A stretch of 64,000 bases of DNA from Escherichia coli (lineage in GTDB: Bacteria > Pseudomonadota > Gammaproteobacteria > Enterobacterales > Enterobacteriaceae): assembly GCF_013315695.1 (NCBI RefSeq), contig NZ_CP054353.1. One strand, given 5' to 3'. Position 1 is the stretch's first letter; every line of letters begins with the position of its first letter. The notes below the pieces were generated by a model that worked only from the letters and a program-made list of their open reading frames with translations, was not told the origin of the DNA and made no database searches. Below, piece after piece: positions 15,171 to 40,147 of the stretch. The position numbers were made by a program, and so were the translations under genes.

Positions 15171-15249
15171 TTCTCACGCGGGCCGGATAGCCCTTCGCTC
15201 TCCGGCCACTTGCAGGCTATGATAGTTCTCCAGCCACAGGAGAACGTTA

Positions 15250-16143
15250 ATGAAACCGCAGGTGTACCACGTCGATGCTTTTACCTCTCAACCGTTTCGC
15301 GGCAATTCTGCCGGTGTTGTTTTCCCCGCCGATAATCTCAGCGAAGCGCAAATGCAGCTTATCGCCCGCGAATTAGGTCATTCCGAAACTGCTTTTCTGC
15401 TGCACAGCGACGACAGCGATGTGCGCATCCGCTACTTTACGCCAACGGTTGAAGTGCCGATTTGTGGTCACGCGACAGTAGCTGCGCACTATGTACGTGC
15501 AAAGGTGTTAGATTTAGGAAATTGCACGGTCTGGCAAACGTCACTGGCAGGAAAACACCGCGTGACTATCGAAAAGCATAACGATGATTATCGTATTTCG
15601 CTGGAACAAGGTACGCCGGGCTTTGAGCCACCGCTGGAAGGTGAAACACGAGCGGCGATTATCAACGCGCTTCATCTCACTGAAGACGATATTTTGCCTG
15701 GCTTGCCAATTCAGGTGGCAACCACAGGACACTCAAAAGTGATGATCCCACTGAAACCAGAAGTGGATATCGACGCCCTTTCGCCTGATCTTGCTGCGCT
15801 GACCGCTATCAGCAAACAGATTGGCTGCAATGGTTTCTTCCCGTTCCAGATCCGCCCAGGCAAAAACGAAACCGACGGTCGTATGTTCTCGCCTGCCATT
15901 GGTATTGTGGAAGATCCGGTGACCGGCAATGCCAATGGCCCGATGGGTGCATGGTTAGTACATCACAACGTATTGCCACACGATGGCAACGTGTTGCGTG
16001 TTAAAGGCCATCAGGGGCGCGCATTAGGGCGTGACGGCGTGATTGAAGTGACGGTGACAATTCGTGATAACCAACCGGAGAAAGTCACCATTTCTGGCAC
16101 GGCGGTGATTTTGTTTCATGCCGAATGGGCAATTGAACTCTGA
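15250..16143 (+). CDS. yddE: PhzF-family isomerase-like protein
   Basis: 297 aa, synteny downstream of narV. Confidence 0.85.
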   Translation: MKPQVYHVDAFTSQPFRGNSAGVVFPADNLSEAQMQLIARELGHSETAFLLHSDDSDVRIRYFTPTVEVPICGHATVAAHYVRAKVLDLGNCTVWQTSLAGKHRVTIEKHNDDYRISLEQGTPGFEPPLEGETRAAIINALHLTEDDILPGLPIQVATTGHSKVMIPLKPEVDIDALSPDLAALTAISKQIGCNGFFPFQIRPGKNETDGRMFSPAIGIVEDPVTGNANGPMGAWLVHHNVLPHDGNVLRVKGHQGRALGRDGVIEVTVTIRDNQPEKVTISGTAVILFHAEWAIEL

Positions 16144-16150
16144 AACCGTT

Positions 16151-16228
16151 GCCTGATGCGCTTCGCTTATCAGGCCTACAACCGGACTAATGTATGCCGG
16201 ATTAGGCATTTACGCCACATCCGGCAAC
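16151..16228. repeat. BIME (two inverted REP units) between yddE and nhoA
   Basis: gcctgatgcgcttcgcttatcaggcctac and tgccggattaggcatttacgccacatccggca read in sequence. Confidence 0.65.
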
Positions 16229-16238
16229 CTGACATAAA

Positions 16239-17084
16239 TTATTTTCCCGCCTCCGGGTGCGTATCAAACGCCGCCATCACCAGCGCTAACTCATCCACAG
16301 TAAAGCCATGTTTCACATCATCCACGCCCAGACCAAACTGTTCCTGCATCACGGCATATAACGACGCCACATCTGGTAGATTTCGCTGCTCAACTGCGTG
16401 CCCATTTTCATAATGGGTAAAATGAAAATTGGTCAGCGTTAGCTTGCCACCGTCCGGCAAATGGCGACACATCAGCAAATGATGGCGAAAATGAGACTGC
16501 GGCCAGTGCGCCGACCAGAAATTGCCCATCACATAATCGCTTTGTTGCTGCTCGCAGAGATCAAAACGGTACATCGACTGCCAGTGCTGATGATGATTAA
16601 ACTGCAACACCCAATCATCACCCTCCTGTAACAACCGATACTCTCCGTGTGGCGTGAACTGCACGAGATCGGGAACTAAACGAATCGGCGCGGTTAGCGT
16701 CTGCCCACCGAAGCCGACATCAGCAATCCATTTTTCCCCTTCCAGTTCCACCAACAGCAAACGATGGGTGCGCGGCGGTAATGCTGGCGGATTTGATAAC
16801 ACTACGCGCCCTAACAAGCTGCGAACGTTAAACCCCAGCTCGCATAACACCCGCTCAAACACGCCATTCTGCTCAAAACAGTAACCGCCACGATGGGCTG
16901 TCACCAGTTTTTCTTCCAGCGATTGATCATCAAGCTGTATTTCCCTCGGCAGCAAAACGTCGAGGTTTTCAAACGGAATAGTGCAATTGTGTTTCAGGTG
17001 CAATGCACGCAGCGTATCAATATTGACCGCAGCAGCTCCCGACCAGTTAATACGGGCAAAATAATGATTCAGAATGGGCGTCAT
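16239..17084 (-). CDS. nhoA: Arylamine N-acetyltransferase (N-hydroxyarylamine O-acetyltransferase)
   Basis: 281 aa, NAT family, synteny. Confidence 0.88.
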   Translation of the reverse strand: MTPILNHYFARINWSGAAAVNIDTLRALHLKHNCTIPFENLDVLLPREIQLDDQSLEEKLVTAHRGGYCFEQNGVFERVLCELGFNVRSLLGRVVLSNPPALPPRTHRLLLVELEGEKWIADVGFGGQTLTAPIRLVPDLVQFTPHGEYRLLQEGDDWVLQFNHHQHWQSMYRFDLCEQQQSDYVMGNFWSAHWPQSHFRHHLLMCRHLPDGGKLTLTNFHFTHYENGHAVEQRNLPDVASLYAVMQEQFGLGVDDVKHGFTVDELALVMAAFDTHPEAGK

Positions 17085-17258
17085 CAGGCGTTTCCCTTAG
17101 TGGTTTTCTCAACTTATAACCTGGAATAGACGCCGCACCGGCTATTTTGTGCGATCGCGGACATGCATCACGTTCGCAAATCGCCAATCCCGTTAATTTC
17201 GTTACTTATTGCGTTACGAGCTACGCTTTTAAAACACCCTTCATAGCGAGGCGATATC

Positions 17259-17828
17259 GTGAGCCAATTCATTCCCGTCGAATTACACCATGCCAGCCGT
17301 CTGTTAAATCATGGCCCAACTGTCTTGATCACCAGTTTCGATGAGCAATCCCAGCGGCGTAACATTATGGCTGCAGCCTGGTCAATGCCGGTGGAGTTTG
17401 AACCTCCACGCGTCGCGATTGTGGTAGATAAGTCGACATGGACCAGGGAGTTGATTGAGCGTAACGGTAAATTTGGCATCGTTATCCCAGGCGTTGCAGC
17501 GACTAACTGGACGTGGGCAGTGGGAAGTGTATCTGGGCGTGAAGAGGATAAATTTAATTGCTATGGCATTCCGGTGGTGGAAGGTCCGGTGCTTGGTTTG
17601 CCACTTGTTGAAGAGAAATGTCTGGCGTGGATGGAGTGCCGATTGCTACCAGCGACTTCCGCGCAAGAGAAATACGACACGCTGTTTGGCGAAGTGGTAT
17701 CAGCAGCGGCAGACGCACGGGTATTTGTCGAAGGCCGCTGGCAGTTTGATGATGATAAGCTCAATACGTTGCATCATTTAGGCGCTGGCACGTTTGTTAC
17801 CAGCGGCAAGCGTGTTACGGCAGGTTAA
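17259..17828 (+). CDS. yddH: Flavin reductase-like domain protein
   Basis: 189 aa, synteny. Confidence 0.8.
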   Translation: MSQFIPVELHHASRLLNHGPTVLITSFDEQSQRRNIMAAAWSMPVEFEPPRVAIVVDKSTWTRELIERNGKFGIVIPGVAATNWTWAVGSVSGREEDKFNCYGIPVVEGPVLGLPLVEEKCLAWMECRLLPATSAQEKYDTLFGEVVSAAADARVFVEGRWQFDDDKLNTLHHLGAGTFVTSGKRVTAG

Positions 17829-17831
17829 GCA

Positions 17832-18059
17832 TTACATGCTGTAACCAGGTTTCTTTATCAGCGTCTCCATTTGGGGCGCAATTTCGGCGTCCCAGATAGC
17901 TTGCCATGATTCTGGTTGAATCTGCTGTAGAGCAATGCTTATCGAACTGTCTTTACTGTTCAGATGGCGAATAATAACGTCGGTAATATCTGCAGCAAGT
18001 GCTGCTTTTTGTTGTTCGTCCAGTTCACGTGGAAAACATTTAATGTCTATGTGCGGCAT
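17832..18059 (-). CDS. pptA: 4-oxalocrotonate tautomerase-family protein
   Basis: Starts [18 protein letters not shown] (internal Met of track ORF 17832..18098); N-terminal Pro after Met typical of tautomerases. Confidence 0.85.
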
Positions 18060-18363
18060 GATTGTGCTCCTTTTGAAAGATGTCAGTAAAATTAACACAC
18101 GTTGTGAATGTTATGTGTCCGGTGATGCTTTTTTACGGCAATAATGCCTACTTGAATTTGTACAGGTTTGTACTACACCCTTTTAAATAAAGCGCCAACA
18201 AAAACGTCAACTTGCAGAATATATTCTTCGCCAACATGCCATTAAGAAAACATCAAGTTCCCAGCTTGCCAATTTATTAACGCCCATTATAGTTATTCTT
18301 GCCCTCACAAAAATTTTCATCCGTAATTACCCCCAATAAAAGTCCATTCTGGAGACGCTTAAG

Positions 18364-18978
18364 ATGCAGCTTAATCATATTGTTAAAAGTCTGCTAATAA
18401 CGGGATTATTCACCACCAGTTCTTTGCCACTCCTCGCGGCGGAAGCCCCTAAAGACGCCACCGCAGCCACGCAACAAGCAAACAATTTACTCTACAACCA
18501 GTTGCCGTTTTCTGATAACACTGACTTTACTGATGCCCATAAAGGTTTTGTTGCCCCTATCCCTCAAGACGTGATTAAGGGCGAAAAAGGAAATGTTATC
18601 TGGGATCCACAACAATACGCTTTTATTAAAGAAGGTGATAAAGCCCCTGATACGGTGAATCCAAGTTTATGGCGTCAGGCGCAACTGATAAATATCAGCG
18701 GGTTATTCGAAGTAACTGAAGGTGTCTATCAGATTCGCAATCTCGATCTATCAAATATGACCATCATTGAAGGCAAAGAGGGTATTACCATCGTTGATCC
18801 CCTTGTTTCAGCAGAAACAGCCAAAGTGGGTATGGATCTCTATTACAAAAATCGCGACAAAAAACCGGTAGTAGCGGTTATCTACACACACAGTCATGTC
18901 GATCACTACGGTGGTGTTCGCGGCGTAATTGATGAAGCTGACGTTAAATCAGGCAAAGTTAAAATCTACGCGCCAGCC
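18364..18978 (+). pseudogene. Alkyl/aryl-sulfatase (YjcS/BDS1-like, metallo-beta-lactamase fold) N-terminal fragment, interrupted by IS1
   Basis: Signal peptide plus MBL motif THSHVDHYGG; reading frame runs directly into IS1 left end. Confidence 0.75.
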
Positions 18979-19033
18979 GGTGATGCTGCCAACTTACTGA
19001 TTTAGTGTATGATGGTGTTTTTGAGGTGCTCCA

Positions 19034-19309
19034 GTGGCTTCTGTTTCTATCAGCTGTCCCTCCTGTTCAGCTACTGACGGGGTGGTGCGTAACGGCAAAA
19101 GCACCGCCGGACATCAGCGCTATCTCTGCTCTCACTGCCGTAAAACATGGCAACTGCAGTTCACTTACACCGCTTCTCAACCCGGTACGCACCAGAAAAT
19201 CATTGATATGGCCATGAATGGCGTTGGATGCCGGGCAACAGCCCGCATTATGGGCGTTGGCCTCAACACGATTTTACGTCACTTAAAAAACTCAGGCCGC
19301 AGTCGGTAA
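19034..19309 (+). CDS. insA: IS1 InsA
   Basis: 91-aa [43 protein letters not shown]. Confidence 0.95.
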
Positions 19310-19731
19310 CCTCGCGCATACAGCCGGGCAGTGACGTCATCGTCTGCGCGGAAATGGACGAACAGTGGGGCTATGTCGGGGCTAAATCGCGCCAGCGCTG
19401 GCTGTTTTACGCGTATGACAGGCTCCGGAAGACGGTTGTTGCGCACGTATTCGGTGAACGCACTATGGCGACGCTGGGGCGTCTTATGAGCCTGCTGTCA
19501 CCCTTTGACGTGGTGATATGGATGACGGATGGCTGGCCGCTGTATGAATCCCGCCTGAAGGGAAAGCTGCACGTAATCAGCAAGCGATATACGCAGCGAA
19601 TTGAGCGGCATAACCTGAATCTGAGGCAGCACCTGGCACGGCTGGGACGGAAGTCGCTGTCGTTCTCAAAATCGGTGGAGCTGCATGACAAAGTCATCGG
19701 GCATTATCTGAACATAAAACACTATCAATAA
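19228..19731 (+). CDS. insB: IS1 InsB (transposase made as InsAB by -1 frameshift)
   Basis: 167-aa ORF overlapping insA; A-run slippery site upstream. Confidence 0.95.
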
Positions 19732-19746
19732 GTTGGAGTCATTACC

Positions 19747-20721
19747 GAAGCTCTCAATTTATGGGGAGATAAAGCCGAGATTATTCTCGCTCAACATCAC
19801 TGGCCAACCTGGGGCAACGATAACGTGGTCAAACTGCTTAAAAGCCAGCGTGATTTGTATCGTTACATCAATGATCAAACTCTGCGTATGGCAAATCAAG
19901 GGATGACCCGTGATGAAATTGCCGCAAACTTTAAACTGCCCTCTTCACTGGCTAATACCTGGGCGAATCGCGGCTATTACGGTTCGGTAAGTCATGACGT
20001 GAAAGCAACTTACGTGCTTTATCTCGGCTGGTTTGATGGTAACCCCGCGACGCTTGATGAACTGCCGCCAGAAGAAGGCGCAAAAAAATTCGTCGAGTAT
20101 ATGGGCGGTGCTGATGCCATTTTACAGAAAGCCAAACAGGATTATGACCAGGGTAATTTCCGCTGGGTTGCCCAAGTTGTTAGTAAGGTGGTGTTTACCG
20201 ATCCAAACAACCAGGCAGCGAGAAATCTGGAAGCTGATGCGCTTGAGCAGTTAGGCTATCAGGCTGAATCTGGGCCGTGGCGTAATTTCTATCTCACTGG
20301 CGCACAGGAATTGCGTAATGGCGTACAAAAATTACCAACACCAAATACTGCCAGCCCAGACACCGTGCGTGCGATGACGCCGGAGATGTTCTTTGATTAT
20401 CTTGCCGTCCATATTAATGGTGAGAAAGCGGCAGATGCCAAAACCGTGTTGAATTTCGATTTTGGTGAAGATGGCGGCACCTATAAAGTGGAGCTTGAAA
20501 ATGGTGTTCTCAATCATACCGCTGGTGTAGAGGCTTCGGATGCTGATGCCACTATCACTCTGTCTCGTGATGTATTGAACAAAATTGTACTGAAAGAAGA
20601 GACGCTGAAAGAAGCCACGGCCAAAGAAGATGTCAAAATTACTGGCAATGCGGAAAAACTCAACGAGCTGTTAGGTTATATGGATAATTTTGAATTTTGG
20701 TTCAATATAGTGACACCATAA
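19747..20721 (+). pseudogene. Alkyl/aryl-sulfatase C-terminal fragment (dimerisation and SCP2-like region)
   Basis: Open frame from IS1 junction through track ORF 19825..20721; same gene family as N-terminal fragment. Confidence 0.7.
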
Positions 20722-20733
20722 ATTTACTGCATA

Positions 20734-20758
20734 CCGGGCAGGTATCCTGCCCTTTTTT
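20734..20758 (+). terminator. Rho-independent terminator after sulfatase fragment
   Basis: ccgggcagg-tatc-cctgccc followed by TTTTTT. Confidence 0.5.
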
Positions 20759-20767
20759 GGTTAAAAA

Positions 20768-21865
20768 ATGGCTGAACGAAGAAAAACGCATCACTCATGG
20801 AAAACCCGCCGCGATATGGTTATTCGCGGCATGACGATTAGTTTGCCATGGTTTGCTTTTATCAATGTCAGTTTTGCATTGATAATTTTGCTGCGCCGTG
20901 TTCTGTTTAATGACCTTACTCCACCCTGGTTAAATGAAAAAAGCCTTATACATTCTATTGATATATCTGCAACGGGTATTCTGCTGATTTGCAGTGGTTT
21001 ACTACTCATCCCTCGGCAAAAAACATTACCTATCCAGGTGCTATTAGTTGCCCTGAGCCTGCTATGGTCATGGTGTAGTTATCACTTTATTGCGTACTGG
21101 ACGCTGCAGTTTGCTTATCCACTATGTGTATTATTAATGCTTAGTGGCGTTATCGCACTTTATTTCCATACCCCATCATTGCTCGCATTTGTCATTCCCT
21201 TATGGTTCACCACTCCAATAGCGAGTCTTATGCTTAATCAACAGATCAATATTCATTTTGCTGTTGTATGGTGTATTTTTTCACTGGCGCTATATGGTGG
21301 GCGACTCATTTTGTTACGTTGGTTTGAAGAAGCATGGGTACAAAACAGTTATAACAACCAGTTAATTAATCGCCTTGATGCATTAGCACATCGTGATCCT
21401 TTAACTGGGATAGCAAACCGACGTGCAATGAACAGTATCTTACACGACGCGATAGATAACGGCGGGTCATTTGCTCTTATTATGCTGGATGTCGATTTTT
21501 TTAAACGTTACAACGACACTTACGGGCATCCTGCTGGGGATCGTTGTCTAATACAAGTTGCCGACGCTCTACAGCGTTCAACTCGCCAGTCGGAGGATGT
21601 TGTTGTCCGTTATGGTGGCGAAGAGTTTGTCATCATACTTTTTAATGCAACATTGCCGGAAGCAGAGACGGTAGCAGCCAGAGTGAAGCAAGAACTTAAA
21701 CTGGCAGCTATCCCGCATCAGGCATCTGCTGTTAATGCATTCGTTACGGTTAGTCAGGGGATTACCTGTTCTGCTCCCGCAAAAACGGCTGAACAAATTA
21801 TTTCAGATGCCGACGCTGCGTTATACCGGGCGAAAGAAAGTGGGCGAAATCGATGGGAAAAATAA
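20768..21865 (+). CDS. Membrane-anchored diguanylate cyclase (GGDEF domain, GGEEF active site)
   Basis: N-terminal hydrophobic segments then RYGGEEF and DGC domain motifs; not a K-12 gene at this locus; start codon uncertain. Confidence 0.8.
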   Translation: MAERRKTHHSWKTRRDMVIRGMTISLPWFAFINVSFALIILLRRVLFNDLTPPWLNEKSLIHSIDISATGILLICSGLLLIPRQKTLPIQVLLVALSLLWSWCSYHFIAYWTLQFAYPLCVLLMLSGVIALYFHTPSLLAFVIPLWFTTPIASLMLNQQINIHFAVVWCIFSLALYGGRLILLRWFEEAWVQNSYNNQLINRLDALAHRDPLTGIANRRAMNSILHDAIDNGGSFALIMLDVDFFKRYNDTYGHPAGDRCLIQVADALQRSTRQSEDVVVRYGGEEFVIILFNATLPEAETVAARVKQELKLAAIPHQASAVNAFVTVSQGITCSAPAKTAEQIISDADAALYRAKESGRNRWEK

Positions 21866-22483
21866 TTAAATGATTCCATTCCTCTTTAGTATCCCTTTTA
21901 GCTTTGGTATCTGACATACAGCATCAGCAATCGCATTGATGTTCGGGGCATTATCCTGAAACCATTCGTGTCCCGGTCCCCATGTGCGCATGGTGCAGAG
22001 ATAACAGTCCACCAGCGTTAGTTGCTCTCCAAACACATACGGTTCAGCGGTCAATTGTGAATTCAGCCAGATATAAAGCGATTTACGATATTCAATAACA
22101 TTATTCTTTAACTGTTCGGGTGCGTCAGGAGCCCAACGCTTAGGGTAATCGGCGAAAGTGAACGTTGGATAGACATTAGCAACCAGCCAGACCAATAACC
22201 GTTGAAACTGCTAGCGTTCGGTGCGCCCAACCGGTGGCGCAAGGTCCGGGCGACGATCGAGAACCATCAATGCAATCGCCGCTGTCTCCGTCATAATCTC
22301 GTCATTTTCCAGCGCCAGTGTCGGAATCTGACACAACGGGTTCAGGGTTTTCAATAAATCGCGTGAAGTTCCCTCGTGGTCAAAACCACTGACATCAACG
22401 AACTGATAAGGAATATCAGCCAGTGTTAGCATCATCTCACTGATTGTAGTGCCCCATCCGGGTACGCCATACACCTTAATCAT
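21866..22483 (-). pseudogene. yncG: Glutathione S-transferase-like protein with in-frame amber (TAG) codon at 22211..22213
   Basis: Track ORFs 22211..22483 and 21866..22195 are in the same frame separated by a single TAG; together they cover GST N- and C-domains. Confidence 0.8.
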
Positions 22484-22749
22484 ATGCCCCTCACAATCTT
22501 TTAAAGATTAAGTCTAGGACAGCACACAGGTTAACCAGCAAAAGTATTTGTCATTTTTTCGTCAGTTGTATTATTCCCCTTCAGGATTGTAAGGGGATGT
22601 TTTGCATCGTTTATCGATAACGGGTAGGATGCTGCGCCGATAGTTTTATACCCATAAAGAATAATGGTGATAACTATCATCGCCAGGATGAATAAACATT
22701 GTTCATGGCAACTTATATGACTTTTTCATTAAAGCAATCAGGGAGAGCA

Positions 22750-24249
22750 ATGAGTAAACACGACACCGACACTTCAGATCAACACGCCGCGAAACGCCGC
22801 TGGCTTAATGCCCACGAAGAGGGGTATCACAAAGCGATGGGCAATCGCCAGGTACAGATGATCGCCATTGGCGGCGCGATTGGCACCGGCTTGTTTTTAG
22901 GTGCAGGAGCCCGACTGCAAATGGCGGGTCCAGCACTGGCACTGGTTTATTTGATCTGCGGCCTGTTTTCATTTTTTATTCTGCGTGCATTGGGTGAGCT
23001 GGTGTTACACCGCCCTTCCAGTGGCAGTTTTGTCTCTTATGCCCGTGAGTTTTTGGGTGAGAAAGCCGCTTATGTTGCTGGCTGGATGTACTTCATCAAC
23101 TGGGCGATGACGGGGATTGTTGATATTACCGCCGTCGCTCTGTATATGCATTACTGGGGTGCGTTTGGCGGCGTGCCGCAGTGGGTCTTTGCGCTCGCTG
23201 CGCTGACCATCGTTGGCACCATGAATATGATTGGTGTGAAATGGTTTGCGGAGATGGAGTTCTGGTTTGCGCTTATTAAAGTGCTCGCCATCGTGACCTT
23301 TTTGGTCGTGGGTACAGTGTTCCTCGGTAGCGGTCAGCCGCTGGATGGCAACGCCACTGGCTTTCATTTAATTACCGATAACGGCGGCTTTTTCCCCCAC
23401 GGTTTGCTGCCTGCGCTGGTGTTGATTCAGGGCGTAGTGTTTGCTTTTGCCTCCATTGAAATGGTGGGTACAGCGGCCGGAGAATGTAAAGATCCGCAGA
23501 CCATGGTGCCTAAAGCGATTAACAGTGTGATTTGGCGTATTGGTCTGTTTTACGTCGGCTCCGTGGTGTTGCTGGTTATGTTATTGCCGTGGAGCGCGTA
23601 TCAGGCGGGGCAAAGTCCGTTCGTGACGTTTTTCTCTAAACTGGGTGTGCCATATATCGGCAGCATTATGAACATTGTGGTGCTGACCGCTGCCCTCTCC
23701 AGCCTGAATTCAGGTCTGTACTGCACCGGGCGTATTCTGCGCTCGATGGCGATGGGCGGTTCCGCACCGAGTTTTATGGCGAAAATGAGTCGTCAGCATG
23801 TGCCGTATGCCGGGATTCTGGCGACACTGGTTGTGTATGTCGTCGGCGTATTCCTCAACTATCTGGTGCCGTCGCGCGTATTTGAGATTGTGTTGAACTT
23901 CGCGTCGCTGGGAATCATCGCTTCATGGGCGTTTATCATCGTGTGCCAGATGCGCCTGCGTAAAGCGATTAAAGAAGGCAAAGCAGCGGATGTCAGTTTT
24001 AAACTGCCTGGCGCGCCCTTCACTTCCTGGCTGACATTACTGTTTTTACTGAGTGTCCTGGTGCTGATGGCGTTCGATTACCCGAACGGGACTTATACTA
24101 TCGCGGCGCTGCCGATTATCGGTATTCTGCTGGTTATAGGCTGGTTTGGTGTGCGCAAACGCGTTGCTGAAATTCACAGCACTGCGCCAGTCGTCGAGGA
24201 AGATGAAGAAAAACAGGAAATTGTGTTTAAACCTGAAACGGCGAGTTAA
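22750..24249 (+). CDS. ansP: L-asparagine permease (APC family)
   Basis: Start MSKHDTDTSDQ inside track ORF 22699..24249; 499 aa. Confidence 0.9.
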   Translation: MSKHDTDTSDQHAAKRRWLNAHEEGYHKAMGNRQVQMIAIGGAIGTGLFLGAGARLQMAGPALALVYLICGLFSFFILRALGELVLHRPSSGSFVSYAREFLGEKAAYVAGWMYFINWAMTGIVDITAVALYMHYWGAFGGVPQWVFALAALTIVGTMNMIGVKWFAEMEFWFALIKVLAIVTFLVVGTVFLGSGQPLDGNATGFHLITDNGGFFPHGLLPALVLIQGVVFAFASIEMVGTAAGECKDPQTMVPKAINSVIWRIGLFYVGSVVLLVMLLPWSAYQAGQSPFVTFFSKLGVPYIGSIMNIVVLTAALSSLNSGLYCTGRILRSMAMGGSAPSFMAKMSRQHVPYAGILATLVVYVVGVFLNYLVPSRVFEIVLNFASLGIIASWAFIIVCQMRLRKAIKEGKAADVSFKLPGAPFTSWLTLLFLLSVLVLMAFDYPNGTYTIAALPIIGILLVIGWFGVRKRVAEIHSTAPVVEEDEEKQEIVFKPETAS

Positions 24250-24257
24250 TTGCAAAA

Positions 24258-24280
24258 TTGCCCGGCTGCGTGCCGGGCAA
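24258..24280. terminator. Hairpin between convergent ansP and yncE (candidate bidirectional terminator)
   Basis: ttgcccggc-tgcg-tgccgggcaa. Confidence 0.45.
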
Positions 24281-24361
24281 ATTCAAATTACTGAAGAAGG
24301 TGCCGGATACGGCGTGATAAAAGTCAGGCAAGTCTCTCCGTTTTCACCCTCGCCATATCTA

Positions 24362-25423
24362 TTACAGCGCAATACGAATCACATCGTCCGGCTGGGTAGC
24401 TTCCTGCTGTTTAGTGGATTTTTGTTTCACACTGACATACAGCGTTTTGCCATCTGCAGACAGCGCCAGGCTGTTCGGATGAGTCGGCGTATCGAACGTT
24501 TTCACCACTTTATAGCTTTTCGCGTCAATCACACTGACTTTACCTGCCTGACGATGCGTCACGTAGGCTTCATTACGCGCTGGGTTAAACAGCACAGCCA
24601 GTGATTCCGGTGCCGCAACCTTCGCAAGAATATTGCCATTACGGGTATCAACCACTAACACTTCTGCCGCTTTAGAATCGGTGATAAATGCACGCTGATT
24701 GGTGGTATCAAGGCTGATGTTGATAAAGAAGTGCTCTTTGTCGTCATCCAGCAGCTTTTTACGGCTGAGGATTTTATTGTCGGCGGTGTCGATGGTAATC
24801 AATTCGCCGTCAGCGTTAGTGGTGTAAAGACGTTTGCCTTTGCTATCCAGCGCTAAACCGGTACTCATTTTACCGGTGTTCTGGATGGCGGTTTTCAGTT
24901 TGATATTCTCGCCATCAACGACCCAAATCACGCTCTCTTTACCAATACCACTGATGTAAACGGTGTTCGTGGCATCATCAGCTACCAGCTCACGCGGTTG
25001 CAGCGGGCGCACCTCTTCCGTGCGCTTACGATCATCCAGCACCAGACGGCCTTTCACTTCGCCCGTTTTGGCATCTATCGCCGTGACCGCGCTGTTTACA
25101 GTGTTACCAAACCACAACGTCTGAGTCGTGTTATTGATGGTGGCACCAAACGGCTTGAGATCGTTATGGATCGCCTGCGTCACTTCCAGAGTAACCGGAT
25201 CAAGACGATAAACCACGCCGCCTTTATCCAGTTTGCGGCTTTGCGAAGTGGCGAGCCACAGCGCGTTTTCTTGCTGGCTATAAGCCATTTCGTAGGCACC
25301 TTTACCTACCGCTTTACGCAGCATTTCTTCTGCGGCCTGCGTACTGAATGATGAAGCAACAAGCAATGAACCTAACAGTAATGAACCACGCAGGCGCGAT
25401 GAAAACAGATGACGTAAATGCAT
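24362..25423 (-). CDS. yncE: PQQ-like beta-propeller protein (periplasmic)
   Basis: 353 aa with signal peptide, synteny. Confidence 0.88.
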   Translation of the reverse strand: MHLRHLFSSRLRGSLLLGSLLVASSFSTQAAEEMLRKAVGKGAYEMAYSQQENALWLATSQSRKLDKGGVVYRLDPVTLEVTQAIHNDLKPFGATINNTTQTLWFGNTVNSAVTAIDAKTGEVKGRLVLDDRKRTEEVRPLQPRELVADDATNTVYISGIGKESVIWVVDGENIKLKTAIQNTGKMSTGLALDSKGKRLYTTNADGELITIDTADNKILSRKKLLDDDKEHFFINISLDTTNQRAFITDSKAAEVLVVDTRNGNILAKVAAPESLAVLFNPARNEAYVTHRQAGKVSVIDAKSYKVVKTFDTPTHPNSLALSADGKTLYVSVKQKSTKQQEATQPDDVIRIAL

Positions 25424-25507
25424 GACGACTCCCTTTGATGAACCGATATTTTTGCTGCTTCACAATGCTTCGCTAAGCGTAATCATCGTTACGCCCTTGT
25501 TATAAAT

Positions 25508-25527
25508 GGGAATGGTAATCATTATTT
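25508..25527. promoter_or_regulatory. Putative Fur box in yncE-yncD divergent intergenic region
   Basis: gggaatggtaatcattattt resembles GATAATGATAATCATTATC consensus. Confidence 0.5.
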
Positions 25528-25665
25528 TCTCAAATGTGGAGCATTTCTTGCCGTTACGACTACAATTTTCTCAATTACTTAACGTATCGTGCCGTTTCGT
25601 TTTCCATAAATTTACAATTTTATTACTATGACGGTGTTTTCCCCATTCTTAACCTGGCTTTTTTC

Positions 25666-27768
25666 ATGAAGATTTTTTCCGTCCAACAGACCGTTTTGCC
25701 CGCACTGCTTGTCCTTTCCCCCGTTGTTTTTGCCGCTGATGAACAGACCATGATTGTCAGTGCCGCACCGCAGGTGGTTTCAGAACTGGATACCCCAGCA
25801 GCCGTGAGCGTGGTGGATGGCGAGGAGATGCGCCTGGCAACACCGCGCATTAACTTGTCTGAATCACTGACCGGAGTGCCTGGTTTACAAGTACAAAACC
25901 GGCAGAACTATGCGCAAGATTTACAGCTGTCGATTCGCGGATTTGGCTCCCGCTCCACTTACGGAATTCGTGGTATTCGCCTGTATGTGGACGGTATTCC
26001 CGCCACCATGCCCGACGGACAAGGGCAGACATCCAACATCGATTTAAGCAGTGTGCAAAATGTGGAAGTGCTGCGTGGCCCCTTCTCTGCTCTGTATGGC
26101 AACGCGTCTGGAGGTGTAATGAATGTCATCACCCAGACCGGACAACAGCCACCAACCATTGAAGCCAGTAGTTACTACGGCAGTTTTGGCAGCTGGCGCT
26201 ATGGGCTGAAAGCAACAGGCGCAACGGGCGACGGCACACAGCCTGGCGATGTCGATTACACCGTCTCAACCACGCGTTTTACGACCCACGGCTATCGTGA
26301 CCATAGTGGCGCACAGAAAAATTTAGCCAATGCCAAACTGGGCGTTCGCATTGATGAAGCCAGCAAATTAAGCCTGATTTTCAATAGTGTGGATATCAAA
26401 GCAGATGACCCAGGTGGGCTAACCAAAGCAGAATGGAAGGCGAATCCACAACAAGCGCCTCGTGCAGAACAGTACGACACGCGAAAAACCATCAAGCAAA
26501 CTCAGGCTGGGTTGCGCTATGAGCGTAGCCTGAGCGCGCAAGATGATATGAGTGTGATGATGTATGCCGGAGAGCGAGAAACGACCCAGTACCAGTCAAT
26601 CCCCATGGCCCCGCAACTTAACCCGTCACATGCGGGCGGCGTGATTACTCTGCAACGCCATTACCAGGGGATAGACAGCCGCTGGACACACCGTGGTGAA
26701 CTGGGCGTTCCGCTCACGTTCACTACCGGCCTGAACTACGAAAACATGAGTGAAAACCGCAAGGGCTACAATAACTTCCGCCTGAATAGCGGCGTGCCGG
26801 AATACGGGCAAAAAGGTGAGTTGCGCCGCGACGAACGCAATCTGATGTGGAACGTCGATCCCTATTTACAGACGCAGTGGCAGCTGAGCGAAAAACTGTC
26901 GCTGGATGCTGGCGTGCGCTACAGCTCCGTGTGGTTTGATTCCAACGACCATTACGTTACTCCGGGTAACGGCGATGACAGCGGTGATGCCAGTTATCAC
27001 AAATGGCTACCTGCCGGTTCGTTAAAATATGCAATGACCGATGCCTGGAATATCTATCTGGCAGCCGGGCGAGGTTTTGAAACGCCGACGATTAATGAGC
27101 TGTCTTATCGTGCTGACGGTCAAAGCGGTATGAACTTTGGTTTAAAACCCTCCACCAACGATACAATTGAGATCGGCAGTAAAACGCGTATTGGTGATGG
27201 GCTGCTTAGTCTCGCATTGTTCCAGACCGACACCGATGATGAAATTGTTGTCGATAGCAGTAGCGGTGGGCGTACGACTTACAAAAATGCCGGAAAGACC
27301 CGTCGTCAAGGCGCTGAACTGGCATGGGATCAACGTTTCGCGGGAGATTTTCGCGTAAAAGCGTCCTGGACCTGGCTCGATGCGACCTATCGCAGCAATG
27401 TGTGCAATGAACAGGATTGTAACGGTAACCGGATGCCAGGGATCGCCCGTAATATGGGCTTTGCGTCGATAGGTTATGTACCGGAGGATGGCTGGTATGC
27501 AGGTACGGAAGCGCGTTATATGGGCGATATTATGGCAGATGATGAAAATACGGCCAAAGCGCCGTCTTATACTCTCGTCGGCTTATTCACCGGGTATAAA
27601 TACAATTACCACAATTTAACTGTGGATTTATTTGGTCGTGTCGATAATTTATTCGATAAAGAATACGTTGGTTCTGTCATTGTCAATGAGTCAAACGGGC
27701 GATATTACGAACCTGCACCCGGGCGAAATTATGGTGTCGGCATGAATATTGCGTGGCGATTTGAGTAA
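25666..27768 (+). CDS. yncD: TonB-dependent outer-membrane receptor
   Basis: Start MKIFSVQQTVLPALLVLSPVVFA inside track ORF; C-terminal ...AWRFE; 700 aa. Confidence 0.88.
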   Translation: MKIFSVQQTVLPALLVLSPVVFAADEQTMIVSAAPQVVSELDTPAAVSVVDGEEMRLATPRINLSESLTGVPGLQVQNRQNYAQDLQLSIRGFGSRSTYGIRGIRLYVDGIPATMPDGQGQTSNIDLSSVQNVEVLRGPFSALYGNASGGVMNVITQTGQQPPTIEASSYYGSFGSWRYGLKATGATGDGTQPGDVDYTVSTTRFTTHGYRDHSGAQKNLANAKLGVRIDEASKLSLIFNSVDIKADDPGGLTKAEWKANPQQAPRAEQYDTRKTIKQTQAGLRYERSLSAQDDMSVMMYAGERETTQYQSIPMAPQLNPSHAGGVITLQRHYQGIDSRWTHRGELGVPLTFTTGLNYENMSENRKGYNNFRLNSGVPEYGQKGELRRDERNLMWNVDPYLQTQWQLSEKLSLDAGVRYSSVWFDSNDHYVTPGNGDDSGDASYHKWLPAGSLKYAMTDAWNIYLAAGRGFETPTINELSYRADGQSGMNFGLKPSTNDTIEIGSKTRIGDGLLSLALFQTDTDDEIVVDSSSGGRTTYKNAGKTRRQGAELAWDQRFAGDFRVKASWTWLDATYRSNVCNEQDCNGNRMPGIARNMGFASIGYVPEDGWYAGTEARYMGDIMADDENTAKAPSYTLVGLFTGYKYNYHNLTVDLFGRVDNLFDKEYVGSVIVNESNGRYYEPAPGRNYGVGMNIAWRFE

Positions 27769-27793
27769 TTACCTTGATGCCCGGTATTTGCTG

Positions 27794-27802
27794 GGCATTT
27801 AC
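27794..27802. repeat. 9-bp target-site duplication (ggcatttac), left copy, IS1 copy 2
   Basis: Identical 9-mer immediately flanks both IS1 ends. Confidence 0.8.
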
Positions 27803-27817
27803 GGTAATGACTCCAAC

Positions 27818-28321
27818 TTATTGATAGTGTTTTATGTTCAGATAATGCCCGATGACTTTGTCATGCAGCTCCACCGATTTTGAGAACGACAGCGACTTCC
27901 GTCCCAGCCGTGCCAGGTGCTGCCTCAGATTCAGGTTATGCCGCTCAATTCGCTGCGTATATCGCTTGCTGATTACGTGCAGCTTTCCCTTCAGGCGGGA
28001 TTCATACAGCGGCCAGCCATCCGTCATCCATATCACCACGTCAAAGGGTGACAGCAGGCTCATAAGACGCCCCAGCGTCGCCATAGTGCGTTCACCGAAT
28101 ACGTGCGCAACAACCGTCTTCCGGAGCCTGTCATACGCGTAAAACAGCCAGCGCTGGCGCGATTTAGCCCCGACATAGCCCCACTGTTCGTCCATTTCCG
28201 CGCAGACGATGACGTCACTGCCCGGCTGTATGCGCGAGGTTACCGACTGCGGCCTGAGTTTTTTAAGTGACGTAAAATCGTGTTGAGGCCAACGCCCATA
28301 ATGCGGGCTGTTGCCCGGCAT
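27818..28321 (-). CDS. insB: IS1 InsB
   Basis: Identical translation to other copies. Confidence 0.95.
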
Positions 28322-28515
28322 CCAACGCCATTCATGGCCATATCAATGATTTTCTGGTGCGTACCGGGTTGAGAAGCGGTGTAAGTGAACTGCAGTTGCC
28401 ATGTTTTACGGCAGTGAGAGCAGAGATAGCGCTGATGTCCGGCGGTGCTTTTGCCGTTACGCACCACCCCGTCAGTAGCTGAACAGGAGGGACAGCTGAT
28501 AGAAACAGAAGCCAC
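28240..28515 (-). CDS. insA: IS1 InsA
   Basis: Identical translation to other copies. Confidence 0.95.
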
Positions 28516-28570
28516 TGGAGCACCTCAAAAACACCATCATACACTAAATCAGTAAGTTGGCAGCATCACC

Positions 28571-28579
28571 GGCATTTAC
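28571..28579. repeat. 9-bp target-site duplication (ggcatttac), right copy, IS1 copy 2
   Basis: See left copy. Confidence 0.8.
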
Positions 28580-28580
28580 T

Positions 28581-29246
28581 TTAACGATTGTATTGCTGAT
28601 ATAAAATAGCAATATTTTGTTGCATAATTTCAGCAAGACAATGTCTGCATCCCTCTTTGTCTTTTGCTTTTAACGCGGCGAGTAATAGATGATAGTTTTC
28701 TATACGCTCCCGTAATTCCGCTGGATTGATCGCTTCATAGAGATAATGTAAACCAGGTCCCATCCTGACCCACAGTTGCTCAATCATCTCACACAGGATG
28801 GGCATATTTGAACGATGATAAATCGCTAAGCGAAATAGCCTGTTCGCATCAATGATTTGTTCCATGTCGCCCTTTTCTTGCGCCTGCTGTAATTTCTCGA
28901 GCAATTCCTCTAGTTCCGCCAGGTCTTGCGGGGTGAGGTTTTCAACAGCCAGAGTAACTGCCATTAATTCCAGCTCGTAGCGGATCCGATTGATTTCGTC
29001 TAATTGACGTTTCCCCACTTCCGGAACTGTAAATGCTTGCGCTGGTGCGACAGAAAGCGCATTCACCGAAACCAGACGTAATAATGCTTCACGCACAGGT
29101 GTAATACTCATACCTAATTGCTCCGCCAGATTTTTAGTAATCAGGCGTGCGCCAGGTTTTAGTGCGCCAATACTAAGCTGATGTTTCAGGTCGTTCTCAA
29201 CCTGCAGAGTCAAACTGACATGTTTCATTTTTTCCGTTCCAGGCAT
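28581..29246 (-). CDS. mcbR: GntR-family transcriptional regulator
   Basis: 221 aa, N-terminal HTH, FCD domain; synteny downstream of curA. Confidence 0.88.
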   Translation of the reverse strand: MPGTEKMKHVSLTLQVENDLKHQLSIGALKPGARLITKNLAEQLGMSITPVREALLRLVSVNALSVAPAQAFTVPEVGKRQLDEINRIRYELELMAVTLAVENLTPQDLAELEELLEKLQQAQEKGDMEQIIDANRLFRLAIYHRSNMPILCEMIEQLWVRMGPGLHYLYEAINPAELRERIENYHLLLAALKAKDKEGCRHCLAEIMQQNIAILYQQYNR

Positions 29247-29444
29247 TTTACTTCCTTCGCGTGTTTTCTGTCCAACCCTGCCTGCATGGCAGAAGGAGTT
29301 AACCTGGGGTATTAAAGTGAATAATCATAAACCACTCACCTTTGTTGTTATTAGCAGCAGAACAATGACGTGGTTAGTTAATTAAAGCTGAAAATAAGCT
29401 TTTTGCCTGGATTTTTATGGCGGCTTTACGCCGCCGTCGTATCT

Positions 29445-30482
29445 TTAATCATCACCCGCCACGCGGATCACCACTTTGCCGAAGTTTTTACCCTTCAGCA
29501 GGCCGATAAACGTCTGTGGCGCATTCTCTAAACCGTCAGTAATTTCTTCGCGGTAGTGGATTTTATCCTCTTTCACCCATTGCCCCATCTCCTTCTGAAA
29601 CTCATGGATGCGGTGACCATAATCCTGAGCAATAATAAACCCTTGCAAGCGAATACGTTTTTTCAGCACCGTAGCCATCAACAAAGGTAAACGATCCGGA
29701 CCGGGTGGTAGCTCTGTAGCGTTATAGCTGCTCACTAAGCCGCAGACGGGAATGCGCGCAGATGTATTAAGTAACGGTAGCACCGCATCAAATACTTTAC
29801 CGCCCACGTTTTCATAATAGATATCAATACCTTTTGGGCACGCTTTCTCCAGTTGTTCGGCAAAATCATCCGCGTGATGGTCAAGACAAACATCAAAGCC
29901 TAACACCTCGGTAGCATGGCGGCATTTTTCCGCGCCACCGGCAACCCCCACCACCCTGCAACCTTTAAGTTTGCCGATTTGCCCCACCGTTGCTCCCACA
30001 GGACCTGTCGCCGCCGCAACCACCAGCGTTTCGCCCTCTTTAGGCTGACCGATATCCAGCAGCCCCATATAAGCAGTAAAGCCTGGCATCCCCAGCACAC
30101 CCAGCGACCACGATGGATTTTGCGGATGATCGCCAAGTTTCACCAGTTCATCACCACTGGATATGTCATAGTCCTGCCATCCACTGTAGCCCAGTACCCA
30201 GTCGCCAGGCTGATAATCAGGATGATTCGACTCCACGACACGGCTCACCGTACCGCCGACCATCACGCCGCCAATATCAACCGGCGGTGAATAAGATGGC
30301 TCATCGCTCATACGTCCACGCATATACGGGTCCAGTGACAAATAAACTGTGCGCAGTAACACTTGTCCTTCACCCGGTGTGGCGACATCATCTTCTTCAA
30401 GACGGAAATTCTCCGGAACCGGTGCGCCATGCGGACGCGAGGCCAGAACCCAACGGCGGTTACGCTGCTTTTGTTGCCCCAT
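29445..30482 (-). CDS. curA: NADPH-dependent curcumin/dihydrocurcumin reductase (MDR family)
   Basis: Start MGQQKQRNRRWVLASRPHG inside track ORF 29445..30575; 345 aa. Confidence 0.88.
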   Translation of the reverse strand: MGQQKQRNRRWVLASRPHGAPVPENFRLEEDDVATPGEGQVLLRTVYLSLDPYMRGRMSDEPSYSPPVDIGGVMVGGTVSRVVESNHPDYQPGDWVLGYSGWQDYDISSGDELVKLGDHPQNPSWSLGVLGMPGFTAYMGLLDIGQPKEGETLVVAAATGPVGATVGQIGKLKGCRVVGVAGGAEKCRHATEVLGFDVCLDHHADDFAEQLEKACPKGIDIYYENVGGKVFDAVLPLLNTSARIPVCGLVSSYNATELPPGPDRLPLLMATVLKKRIRLQGFIIAQDYGHRIHEFQKEMGQWVKEDKIHYREEITDGLENAPQTFIGLLKGKNFGKVVIRVAGDD

Positions 30483-30662
30483 AATGCTCTCCTGTGCTTT
30501 TGGCATGAATCCATCAATAGTAGCAGGCTCGCAGGAATGGTTTTGTTTGCAGCCGTCACATCCCCTCTGCAACACGCAATAATTTCATCGAGGAATCCGT
30601 TGCTTCGGGCTGTTTTCGATAGTATTGATAACGTCATCATCATTATTTTATTGAGGCCAAAC

Positions 30663-31181
30663 ATGTCCATCCGTTTTGCCCGCAAAGCCGACTGTGCTGC
30701 CATTGCGGAAATTTATAACCACGCCGTGTTGTATACGGCGGCTATCTGGAATGACCAAACGGTGGATGCAGATAATCGCATTGCCTGGTTTGAAGCGCGG
30801 ACTTTAGCTGGTTATCCAGTGCTGGTGAGTGAACAAGATGGCGTAGTGACGGGATATGCCTCGTTTGGCGACTGGCGTAGTTTCGATGGTTTTCGCCATA
30901 CCGTGGAACATTCGGTTTATGTCCATCCCGATCATCAGGGCAAAGGTCTGGGGCGTAAATTGTTAAGCCGATTGATTGATGAAGCGCGGGATTGCGGGAA
31001 GCATGTCATGGTCGCCGGGATCGAATCGCAAAATCAGGCTTCGCTGCATCTCCACCAGTCGCTGGGATTTGTCATCACCGCACAAATGCCGCAGGTGGGC
31101 ACTAAATTTGGGCGCTGGCTGGATCTGACATTTATGCAGTTGCAACTCGACGAGCGCACTGAACCGGACGCGATTGGATGA
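30663..31181 (+). CDS. mnaT: GNAT acetyltransferase (L-amino acid N-acyltransferase)
   Basis: Start MSIRFARKADCAAIAEIYN inside track ORF; 172 aa. Confidence 0.88.
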   Translation: MSIRFARKADCAAIAEIYNHAVLYTAAIWNDQTVDADNRIAWFEARTLAGYPVLVSEQDGVVTGYASFGDWRSFDGFRHTVEHSVYVHPDHQGKGLGRKLLSRLIDEARDCGKHVMVAGIESQNQASLHLHQSLGFVITAQMPQVGTKFGRWLDLTFMQLQLDERTEPDAIG

Positions 31182-31627
31182 ATCAGTCGCTCACCCTTGC
31201 TTTTTTGATTGCCGCCGGAATTGGTCTGGTAGTCCAGAACACGCTGATGGTGCGCATCACCCAGACCTCCTCTACCATTCTCATCGCCATGTTGCTGAAC
31301 TCACTGGTGGGGATTGTGCTCTTTGTTTCTATTTTATGGTTTAAACAAGGTATGGCGGGGTTTGGCGAACTGGTGTCCAGCGTGCGCTGGTGGACACTTA
31401 TACCTGGCTTGCTGGGATCGTTTTTTGTCTTCGCCAGTATCAGCGGATATCAGAATGTGGGAGCGGCGACAACTATTGCAGTACTGGTCGCCAGCCAGCT
31501 GATTGGCGGTCTGGTGCTGGATATCTTTCGCAGTCATGGCGTACCACTACGGGCGTTGTTCGGCCCAATTTGTGGCGCAATTTTACTTGTGGTTGGCGCC
31601 TGGCTGGTGGCCAGGCGCACATTTTAA
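31178..31627 (+). CDS. ydcZ: Inner-membrane protein (DUF606)
   Basis: 149 aa hydrophobic, ATGA overlap with mnaT. Confidence 0.85.
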   Translation: MNQSLTLAFLIAAGIGLVVQNTLMVRITQTSSTILIAMLLNSLVGIVLFVSILWFKQGMAGFGELVSSVRWWTLIPGLLGSFFVFASISGYQNVGAATTIAVLVASQLIGGLVLDIFRSHGVPLRALFGPICGAILLVVGAWLVARRTF

Positions 31628-31861
31628 TCAGAGGATGGTGCCACCTTTGGTTAACTGTTCGTGGCGCGCTTCCATATCTTCTTTATGTTTGCGACCGTGA
31701 TGGGCGATCGCTGTGCGCAGACGCTGCTGCTGGGTATAGCGTTCTTCCCGACTTAACTCCGCGTCATCGCTCAGGGCGATTAATAATTCGTTCATATGGG
31801 CAATGACGCTCTCTTCAATCGCGGCATCCACGCGCGCGATGACTTCATCCAGATGCGACAT
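31628..31861 (-). CDS. ydcY: Small uncharacterised protein
   Basis: 77 aa, synteny. Confidence 0.8.
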   Translation of the reverse strand: MSHLDEVIARVDAAIEESVIAHMNELLIALSDDAELSREERYTQQQRLRTAIAHHGRKHKEDMEARHEQLTKGGTIL

Positions 31862-31946
31862 ACTTTCTCCTTAGCCACTTGTGAAATTTATCGATTCATC
31901 CAAATGATATAAGTCTGCGTGGTGCCGTCAAGCCAGTGAGTAAGAT

Positions 31947-32024
31947 TTAAAACAGTGAAAACAACAGCGCCACCGGGAAACTCATCGGCCATGTTGCCCC
32001 CACCAGAAAGGCGCTTAAGAAACG
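31947..32024 (-). pseudogene. ortT: 3' remnant (last 25 codons) of small toxin gene ortT (ydcX), 5' part removed at IS1 junction
   Basis: Minus-strand frame from the IS1 junction reads RFLSAFLVGATWPMSFPVALLFSLF-stop, matching OrtT C-terminus. Confidence 0.65.
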
Positions 32025-32079
32025 GGTGATGCTGCCAACTTACTGATTTAGTGTATGATGGTGTTTTTGAGGTGCTCCA

Positions 32080-32355
32080 GTGGCTTCTGTTTCTATCAGC
32101 TGTCCCTCCTGTTCAGCTACTGACGGGGTGGTGCGTAACGGCAAAAGCACCGCCGGACATCAGCGCTATCTCTGCTCTCACTGCCGTAAAACATGGCAAC
32201 TGCAGTTCACTTACACCGCTTCTCAACCCGGTACGCACCAGAAAATCATTGATATGGCCATGAATGGCGTTGGATGCCGGGCAACAGCCCGCATTATGGG
32301 CGTTGGCCTCAACACGATTTTACGTCACTTAAAAAACTCAGGCCGCAGTCGGTAA
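32080..32355 (+). CDS. insA: IS1 InsA
   Basis: Identical translation to other copies. Confidence 0.95.
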
Positions 32356-32777
32356 CCTCGCGCATACAGCCGGGCAGTGACGTCATCGTCTGCGCGGAAA
32401 TGGACGAACAGTGGGGCTATGTCGGGGCTAAATCGCGCCAGCGCTGGCTGTTTTACGCGTATGACAGGCTCCGGAAGACGGTTGTTGCGCACGTATTCGG
32501 TGAACGCACTATGGCGACGCTGGGGCGTCTTATGAGCCTGCTGTCACCCTTTGACGTGGTGATATGGATGACGGATGGCTGGCCGCTGTATGAATCCCGC
32601 CTGAAGGGAAAGCTGCACGTAATCAGCAAGCGATATACGCAGCGAATTGAGCGGCATAACCTGAATCTGAGGCAGCACCTGGCACGGCTGGGACGGAAGT
32701 CGCTGTCGTTCTCAAAATCGGTGGAGCTGCATGACAAAGTCATCGGGCATTATCTGAACATAAAACACTATCAATAA
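32274..32777 (+). CDS. insB: IS1 InsB
   Basis: Identical translation to other copies. Confidence 0.95.
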
Positions 32778-32846
32778 GTTGGAGTCATTACCGGATTTTC
32801 TTAACCCGTACTATACACATAGGGGCAATGATAAAAGGTGGCAAAA

Positions 32847-32942
32847 ATGAATGTTTCCAGTAGAACTGTAGTACTGATAAATGTCTTTGCTGCTGTTGGT
32901 TTGTTTACTCTTATCTCTATGAGATTTGGCTGGTTTATTTGA
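32847..32942 (+). CDS. yncL: 31-aa small membrane protein MNVSSRTVVLINVFAAVGLFTLISMRFGWFI
   Basis: Short ORF with SD (aaaaggtgg) and hydrophobic helix; below track size cut-off; matches recalled K-12 small protein YncL. Confidence 0.6.
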   Translation: MNVSSRTVVLINVFAAVGLFTLISMRFGWFI

Positions 32943-40038: not shown

Positions 40039-40147
40039 TATCGAATCGTTATTATGTGCAGGTGATTCGGCAGTCTATATCAGTTGTTAAAAATGACAAC
40101 TTTTCATTAACTGTTATCAAACCATCACCAGCGATAACTCCTTGCCT

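Follow-up and report, generated by a model that had tools for sequence, protein, structure and literature searches.

Three copies of the insertion sequence (IS) IS1 lie within 13.8 kb of a 64-kb stretch of Escherichia coli DNA (contig NZ_CP054353.1; the whole 64,000-nucleotide stretch is termed the window), and they very probably record three recent, lineage-specific insertions of an active IS1 in a clone with an expanded IS1 complement, two of which (copies 1 and 3) then underwent adjacent deletion. The three copies are identical to one another, their breakpoints can be placed exactly against an IS-free relative, their presence or absence in close relatives is clear-cut, and copy 1 borders a nested deletion in a sister isolate in which its right junction has remained fixed.

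Three complete and identical IS1 elements

Alignment of the three copies in the window gave 100% nucleotide identity over the 768-bp core, with unrelated 30-bp flanks. A repeat search of the whole window found these three copies only, pairing copies 1 and 3 as direct repeats whose starts are 13,046 bp apart and copy 2 with each of them as an inverted repeat, all at 100% identity, and an exact-string search with the IS ends found no fourth IS1 end in the 64 kb. The initial annotation had read identical InsA and InsB proteins from the three copies; this is exact, as are the coordinates it gave for them, and as the identity holds at the nucleotide level too, the result is stronger than that claim.

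All three elements are complete IS1 family insertion sequences of the IS1A type. Their left (IRL, GGTGATGCTGCCAACTTACTGAT) and right (IRR, GGTAATGACTCCAACTTATTGAT) inverted repeats are 23 bp each and match at 18 of 23 positions, InsA has 91 amino acids, an A6C slippery motif occupies IS positions 307-313, and a simulated -1 fusion yields an InsAB′ protein of 232 amino acids. The RefSeq record of strain MSB1_4I likewise annotates a programmed frameshift on the IS1 transposase. Scored with NCBIfam model NF033558 (IS1 family transposase; cut-off 100 bits), the InsB frame reached 145.6 bits; InsA by itself, which makes up just the N-terminal portion of the fusion, scored 91.3 bits (model positions 1-81).

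Breakpoints resolved against IS-free relatives

The initial annotation had suggested a comparison with close relatives. We searched a database of 5,426 complete genomes, and the IS-free strains MS 21-1 and AF14 together with the partial carrier AF3 resolve both the breakpoints and the order of insertion. The window is colinear over its full length with the MSB1_4I chromosome (NZ_LR898874.1; human rectal swab, Australia), with 8 substitutions and 0 indels over 64 kb. MS 21-1, AF14 (OZ546925) and OZ546911 match the region at ~100% identity and 90% coverage, the latter because all three IS1 copies are absent. AF3 (OZ547117; UK blood culture) has copy 3, at the same two junctions, and also the right junction of copy 1. 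Breakpoints were read against MS 21-1 (locus L002), which differs by 6 single-nucleotide polymorphisms (SNPs) in 20.7 kb.

Copy 2 was inserted cleanly between genes, in the 35-bp pqqU-mcbR spacer, 10 bp past the mcbR stop codon, and is flanked by a direct 9-bp duplication (GGCATTTAC) of a sequence that is single-copy in MS 21-1 (L002 13414-13422). No matching target duplication flanks copy 1 (GCGCCAGCC / GAAGCTCTC) or copy 3 (TAAGAAACG / GGATTTTCT). Copy 1 stands in place of 387 bp (L002 4980-5366) within a 1977-bp alkyl/aryl-sulfatase gene, and copy 3 in place of 236 bp (L002 16868-17103) that take in 96 nt from the 5′ end of ortT (174 nt in full) and the greater part of the spacer between ortT and yncL; the left junctions of both are ambiguous by 1-2 bp because the IS starts with GG. 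These measured deletions explain why copies 1 and 3 have no target duplication. The sizes balance, in that 387 + 236 - 9 = 614 bp is exactly the length difference between the window and the MS 21-1 locus once the three IS copies are subtracted. At both sites, then, a full-length IS sits at a duplication-free junction between flanks that lie 387 and 236 bp apart in MS 21-1, the arrangement examined as the mark of adjacent deletion. Two earlier readings, that only the middle copy has a target duplication and that the other two bear deletion signatures, are thereby borne out, the second directly against MS 21-1.

A nested deletion in a sister isolate

Copy 1 of AF3 has window 3775-3834 as its left flank and meets position 3834, within an ompC-like porin gene, with its left end. 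Its right junction is the same as in MSB1_4I, where the left junction corresponds to L002 4979. The loss specific to AF3 amounts to 15,144 bp and takes in the porin 3′ end, LRR genes, narU, narZ, narH, narW, narI, yddE, nhoA, yddH, pptA and the sulfatase 5′ remnant. A 4-kb query from the left of copy 1 retrieved MSB1_4I, AF14, OZ546911 and MS 21-1 (~100%), and did not find the deleted DNA elsewhere in AF3. Copy 1 thus combines a fixed right junction with left endpoints that differ between MSB1_4I and AF3, and a fixed junction with a variable other endpoint is the classical signature of IS1-promoted adjacent deletion. Copy 3 occurs in one state only among these genomes. The coordinates of all these features are collected in Table 1.

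Table 1 Features of the three IS1 copies and their surroundings (window coordinates)
Feature	Position	Strand	Remarks
IS1 copy 1	18979..19746	+	768 bp; annotated IS1A-family transposase with programmed frameshift
Copy 1, IRL	18979-19001		
Copy 1, insA	19034-19309		
Copy 1, insB frame	19228-19731		
Copy 1, A6C motif	19285-19291		
Copy 1, IRR	19724-19746		
IS1 copy 2	27803..28570	-	768 bp; between convergent pqqU (yncD) and mcbR
Left target-site duplication, copy 2	27794..27802		GGCATTTAC
Right target-site duplication, copy 2	28571..28579		GGCATTTAC
IS1 copy 3	32025..32792	+	768 bp; no target duplication
Alkyl/aryl-sulfatase (MBL fold), 5′ remnant	18364..18978	+	Pseudogene without C-terminus, compared with intact 1977-bp gene in MS 21-1; gene also intact in AF14
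Alkyl/aryl-sulfatase, 3′ remnant	19747..20721	+	Right junction of copy 1, common to AF3
ortT (orphan toxin OrtT) remnant	31947..32024	-	Last 78 nt only; intact 174-nt ortT in MS 21-1 and AF14
Block between copies 1 and 3	19747..32024		12.3 kb
Interval deleted in AF3, present in window	3835..18978		From ompC-like porin interior to IRL end of copy 1

Order of insertion

Over 15.7 kb of common IS-free sequence, the window is identical to RefSeq MSB1_4I, and the SNP counts are 1 to AF3, 4 to MS 21-1 and 6 to AF14. Copy 2 is absent from AF3, MS 21-1 and AF14. From these distances and the pattern of presence and absence it follows that copies 1 and 3 are older than the MSB1_4I/AF3 split and that copy 2 is younger than the split and the youngest of the three. 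None of the three insertion sites is used in any other genome among the 5,426. Two candidates for a shared insertion were rejected: the IS1 in the sulfatase gene of M21170 sits at codons 2-5 with a normal 9-bp duplication, and the IS1 near the copy 3 site in 33 records lies in a CatB-like acetyltransferase gene that is absent from this lineage. A literature search for strain MSB1_4I by name returned nothing relevant.

Copy 3 and the relation of the window to the RefSeq assembly

The window differs from NZ_LR898874.1 at positions 4826, 8111, 9951, 13320, 17848, 32124, 32286 and 63769. Two of these sites fall in copy 3, at IS positions 100 and 262 (window 32124 and 32286), and read T/T in both RefSeq MSB1_4I and AF3, and C/A in the window as in copies 1 and 2. 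C100T and A262T are both at third codon positions and silent in insA and InsAB′, and RefSeq gives one InsAB′ protein accession for all three copies; the change at position 262 would alter residue 5 of the free-standing insB open reading frame (S to C). Judged against MS 21-1 and AF14, four of the six differences outside copy 3 are private to RefSeq and two to the window. The RefSeq-private alleles lie in the narZ, narH and pptA genes, where the protein accessions differ from those of MS 21-1. Relative to RefSeq MSB1_4I, the window therefore looks like an assembly of its own or like the sequence of a sister isolate.

T/T is probably the ancestral state of copy 3, because it is common to two independent genomes, and the window would then have come to read C/A either because a different IS1 copy converted it or because polishing homogenised the repeat. 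Divergence between the copies, which the initial annotation had named as an observation that would speak against its reading, is accordingly absent within the window and weakly present in the two sister assemblies, at 2 of the 768 nt of copy 3.

The same eight sites bear on whether the copies, their flanks or their perfect identity could be products of repeat collapse or polishing. At the two sites in copy 3 the window has the majority IS1 allele, the typical result of short-read polishing of a multicopy repeat; such an artefact would explain at most these two bases and not the structure, since 6 of 6 junctions are also present in the RefSeq MSB1_4I assembly and 3 of them in the independently sequenced AF3. 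With the junctions reproduced in independent assemblies, the structure is not a product of misassembly, and we regard an artefactual origin of the feature as extremely improbable.

A more far-reaching combination would take the copy 3 change as real and rapid gene conversion between dispersed IS1 copies, the locus as being in stepwise reductive evolution, and copies 1 and 3 with the 12 kb between them as a nascent Tn9-like or amplifiable unit; taken jointly, these propositions appear unlikely to us. If the gene conversion reading were true, an IS1-loaded bloodstream and gut clone would have been caught losing a sulfatase, the OrtT toxin and, in AF3, nitrate reductase Z.

Mechanism and alternatives

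The observed changes are adjacent deletions anchored at IS ends, plus a new insertion, and thus point to transposase-type chemistry and not to homologous exchange between the three copies. We infer an intramolecular, transposase-mediated deletion and the following order of steps. An ancestor common to MSB1_4I and AF3 would have gained copies 1 and 3, as simple insertions each with a 9-bp duplication. After insertion, the transposase would have joined an end of the IS to a target close by in the same DNA molecule, with loss of the DNA between them; such strand transfer would keep the IS intact at the junction and remove one copy of the duplication. The outcome is a sulfatase gene shortened by 387 bp and the loss of 236 bp from the 5′ part of ortT and the sequence upstream. 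The 15.1 kb additionally missing from AF3, with the narU-narZYWV nitrate reductase Z cluster, would have gone by this reaction too, or by a repeat of it, beginning at the left end of copy 1. Copy 2 would be a later insertion on the MSB1_4I branch only, the 9-bp duplication of simple transposition still being visible.

Several observations are consistent with this scheme. Copy 2 separates MSB1_4I from AF3 at a distance of only 1 SNP per 15.7 kb. Two unrelated strains with independent IS1 copies near mcbR, ET776 and B27, show the same kind of duplication-free adjacent loss (457 bp and 740 bp, respectively), and unrelated IS1 copies nearby have overlaps of 9-10 bp. Missing target duplications have been explained by adjacent deletions or by IS-IS recombination, and adjacent deletions are frequently small initially and then enlarge (PMC11708052). 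In clinical E. coli, losses of 11-66 kb directly beside IS1 were ascribed to abortive or intramolecular IS1 transposition (PMC10569738).

Recombination is the other route named in that literature. RecA-dependent exchange between close direct pairs of IS1 (387 bp and 236 bp apart, and in AF3 copy 1 with a copy in the porin gene) would leave an identical end product, one hybrid IS1 without matching flanks; IS-IS recombination is a frequent cause of lost target duplications (PMC11708052), and the genome holds at least 40 IS1 copies. This route would nevertheless need two independent same-orientation insertions within a few hundred bp of each other, at two loci, and a third in the porin gene, while no genome with such paired copies was found among the 5,426. 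Even three copies within 14 kb are expected with a P of only ~0.17 (at least 40 copies on 5.28 Mb), and pairs less than 400 bp apart would require local hopping. We therefore consider recombination between IS1 pairs unlikely.

Four points weigh against insertion followed by transposase-mediated deletion. A pre-deletion intermediate (IS1 with its duplication and no deletion) at the copy 1 or copy 3 site is found in none of the 5,426 complete genomes, and the clade is represented by three genomes; the two-step order is for this reason inferred and not observed. The end sequence taken by itself fits intramolecular transposition, recombination of two close IS1 copies and one-step insertion-deletion equally. 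At copy 1, the 387-bp loss could have lain to the left or to the right of the original insertion. Finally, the two sister assemblies contradict the perfect identity of copy 3, and a common origin in the same burst from the same donor is not secure for that copy.

The missing intermediate would be expected if each IS1 had arrived together with its deletion and never had a duplication, through intramolecular attack by a distant donor or through duplication-free movement, and movements of IS5 and IS481 have been seen to coincide with large rearrangements without target duplication (PMC11708052). In the long-term evolution experiment, however, 14 of 14 IS-plus-deletion events were stepwise adjacent deletions (PMC11708052). 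A distant donor would moreover delete or invert everything up to its target, whereas the flanks here are colinear with relatives except for the small losses, and the comparison of AF3 with MSB1_4I at one end of copy 1 shows that at least one deletion took place after the IS was already resident. One-step arrival is, on this evidence, very unlikely. As to the inverted copy 2, an origin by duplicative inversion was rejected, both of its sides being colinear with IS-free relatives and its 9-bp duplication being direct.

Insertion followed by adjacent deletion requires no new element, mechanism or architecture, and the feature is explained by well-known IS1 biology.

Rearrangement potential of the 12.3-kb block

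Copies 1 and 3 bracket a block that contains the sulfatase 3′ remnant, a GGDEF gene, the yncG pseudogene, ansP, yncE, pqqU, IS1 copy 2, mcbR, curA, mnaT, ydcZ, ydcY and the ortT remnant; the gene list first given for this interval agrees with the RefSeq annotation. The initial annotation had further predicted that recombination between copies 1 and 3 could delete or amplify the block and that copy 2 could mediate inversions. Neither was encountered: the three carriers and the 5,426 complete genomes contain no hybrid junction of copies 1 and 3 and no inversion through copy 2, and the block is intact and colinear with the IS-free relatives in 3 of 3 carrier genomes. An intact block in three genomes only is weak evidence of stability, and the three copies are substrates for homologous recombination, for which 99.7-100% identity over 768 bp is ample. 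The instability in these data is driven by IS ends.

The view of a rearrangement-prone region in an IS1-rich genome holds in part. MSB1_4I, AF3, AF14 and OZ546911 each contain at least 40 IS1 matching pieces, and MS 21-1 ~18, compared with a median of ~10-11 places in E. coli, and AF3 has lost 15,144 bp; the clustering of the three copies is by contrast not unusual. When 40-80 copies were placed at random on 5.28 Mb, any three fell within 13.8 kb with P = 0.17-0.75, and local clustering or local hopping was accordingly rejected as not significant (P at least 0.17 at 40 or more copies).

A hot spot at the copy 2 site was rejected as well. Nine other records have IS1 inside the searched 600 bp of copy 2 flank, against ~8 expected (~64,000 chromosomal places / 5 Mb x 0.6 kb). 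The six that were examined sit at differing positions (L002 13312-13697), inside mcbR, at the 3′ end of pqqU or in the spacer between the two genes, and the single orientation among the nine is a search artefact, pieces having been joined on one strand only.

Neighbouring genes and side observations

An inverted repeat (ATGCCCGG...CTGGGCAT; window 27763-27802) lies between the convergent pqqU and mcbR genes, and copy 2 landed on its border. From its sequence the repeat looks like a shared terminator; the hairpin is retained on the pqqU side and parted from mcbR by copy 2. mcbR itself (window 28581-29246), a colanic acid/biofilm regulator, has been inactivated by independent IS1 insertions or adjacent deletions in at least five unrelated strains (L006, L007, L008, L010, L011), the elements being IS1A, IS1B and a ~92% identical variant, in numbers near the chance expectation.

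In window 32793-32942, the right end of copy 3 is now followed after 54 bp by the start codon of yncL, which encodes a 31-residue stress-response membrane protein. The gene has lost most of its native upstream region, and yncL expression may now depend on insB read-through or a hybrid promoter.

Within the block, yncG (21866-22483; glutathione S-transferase family) is a pseudogene with an internal stop codon, a defect that is older than the IS1 events because it is common to MS 21-1, AF14 and AF3. A second IS family has also reached this neighbourhood: AF14 carries a 1199-bp insertion (including the duplication) of the IS5-like ISKpn26 in the GGDEF diguanylate cyclase gene (L015 7075-8055; equivalent to window ~21383), together with a frameshifted patD. 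Beside the porin gene lie fragments of leucine-rich-repeat (LRR) genes (window 4139-6724). MS 21-1 also has the 288-nt fragment among them; the annotation of a frameshifted LRR pseudogene of 484 nt is confined to MSB1_4I. A 78-nt HicB antitoxin remnant (window 40117-40194) is likewise present in MS 21-1.

Relation to known systems and significance

The three elements resemble classical IS1 (IS1A/IS1R) of E. coli and Shigella in their 768-bp length, 23-bp imperfect repeats, insA/insB′ A6C -1 frameshift and 9-bp duplication. The deletions resemble those classically promoted by IS1 in adjacent DNA (Reif and Saedler 1975, cited in PMC10569738), which start at an IS end, leave the IS intact and erase the duplication, in a nested series of 387 bp here and 15.5 kb in AF3. 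We detected no mechanistic difference from classical IS1, and only the loci hit (the sulfatase gene, ortT and the pqqU/mcbR spacer) are specific to the clone. IS1-adjacent chromosomal deletions of 11-66 kb cause nitrofurantoin heteroresistance in clinical E. coli (PMC10569738). The 15-kb loss in AF3 is similar to these in affecting clinical E. coli, adjoining a resident IS1 and removing kilobases of non-essential genes, whereas the deletions in the window are far smaller (236 and 387 bp) and have no known selected phenotype.

With two direct IS1 copies bracketing 12.3 kb, the arrangement also recalls a composite transposon of the Tn9 type. Unlike Tn9, the unit as a whole is not flanked by a duplication (GCGCCAGCC on its outer left and GGATTTTCT on its outer right differ), and the passenger genes are in native synteny. 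An IS1-bounded block was not found on plasmids: the plasmid database has the block only in records of mislabelled chromosomes or of pieces of chromosome, of which only the 33.75-kb record was examined and lacks IS1. Composite transposition or plasmid mobilisation was rejected on these three grounds.

The 33.75-kb record (NZ_CP110997.1, L016) is labelled a non-mobilizable plasmid of the urinary E. coli XYEH3783 and consists wholly of this chromosomal region, from yncL to yddG. It includes narU-narZHWI and an island with a type VI secretion system and PAAR, contains no IS1 and no annotated replication gene, and represents either an artefact of assembly or a circle excised from the chromosome. 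The block is also found on two larger "plasmids" (252 kb and 385 kb), and several "plasmid" records of 4.8-4.9 Mb are mislabelled chromosomes.

In Shigella, which carries hundreds of IS1 copies, and in laboratory lines loaded with IS elements, IS expansion goes together with reductive evolution. The clone described here shares with them a high IS1 number, gene inactivation and small-to-large deletions at IS ends; unlike Shigella, it does so on a far smaller scale (at least 40 copies) and its genome is not reduced (5.28 Mb).

Beyond strain-level genomics, the significance of these observations is small. As a practical reminder, multicopy IS elements that look identical in a polished assembly may not be so down to the last base. 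For the biology of IS1, the locus offers a side-by-side natural example of a simple insertion, small adjacent deletions and, in a sister isolate, the growth of one such deletion by 15 kb, and it shows an IS1-loaded clinical E. coli clone shedding accessory genes, namely those for the sulfatase and the toxin OrtT, and in AF3 also the gene cluster of the NarZ nitrate reductase.

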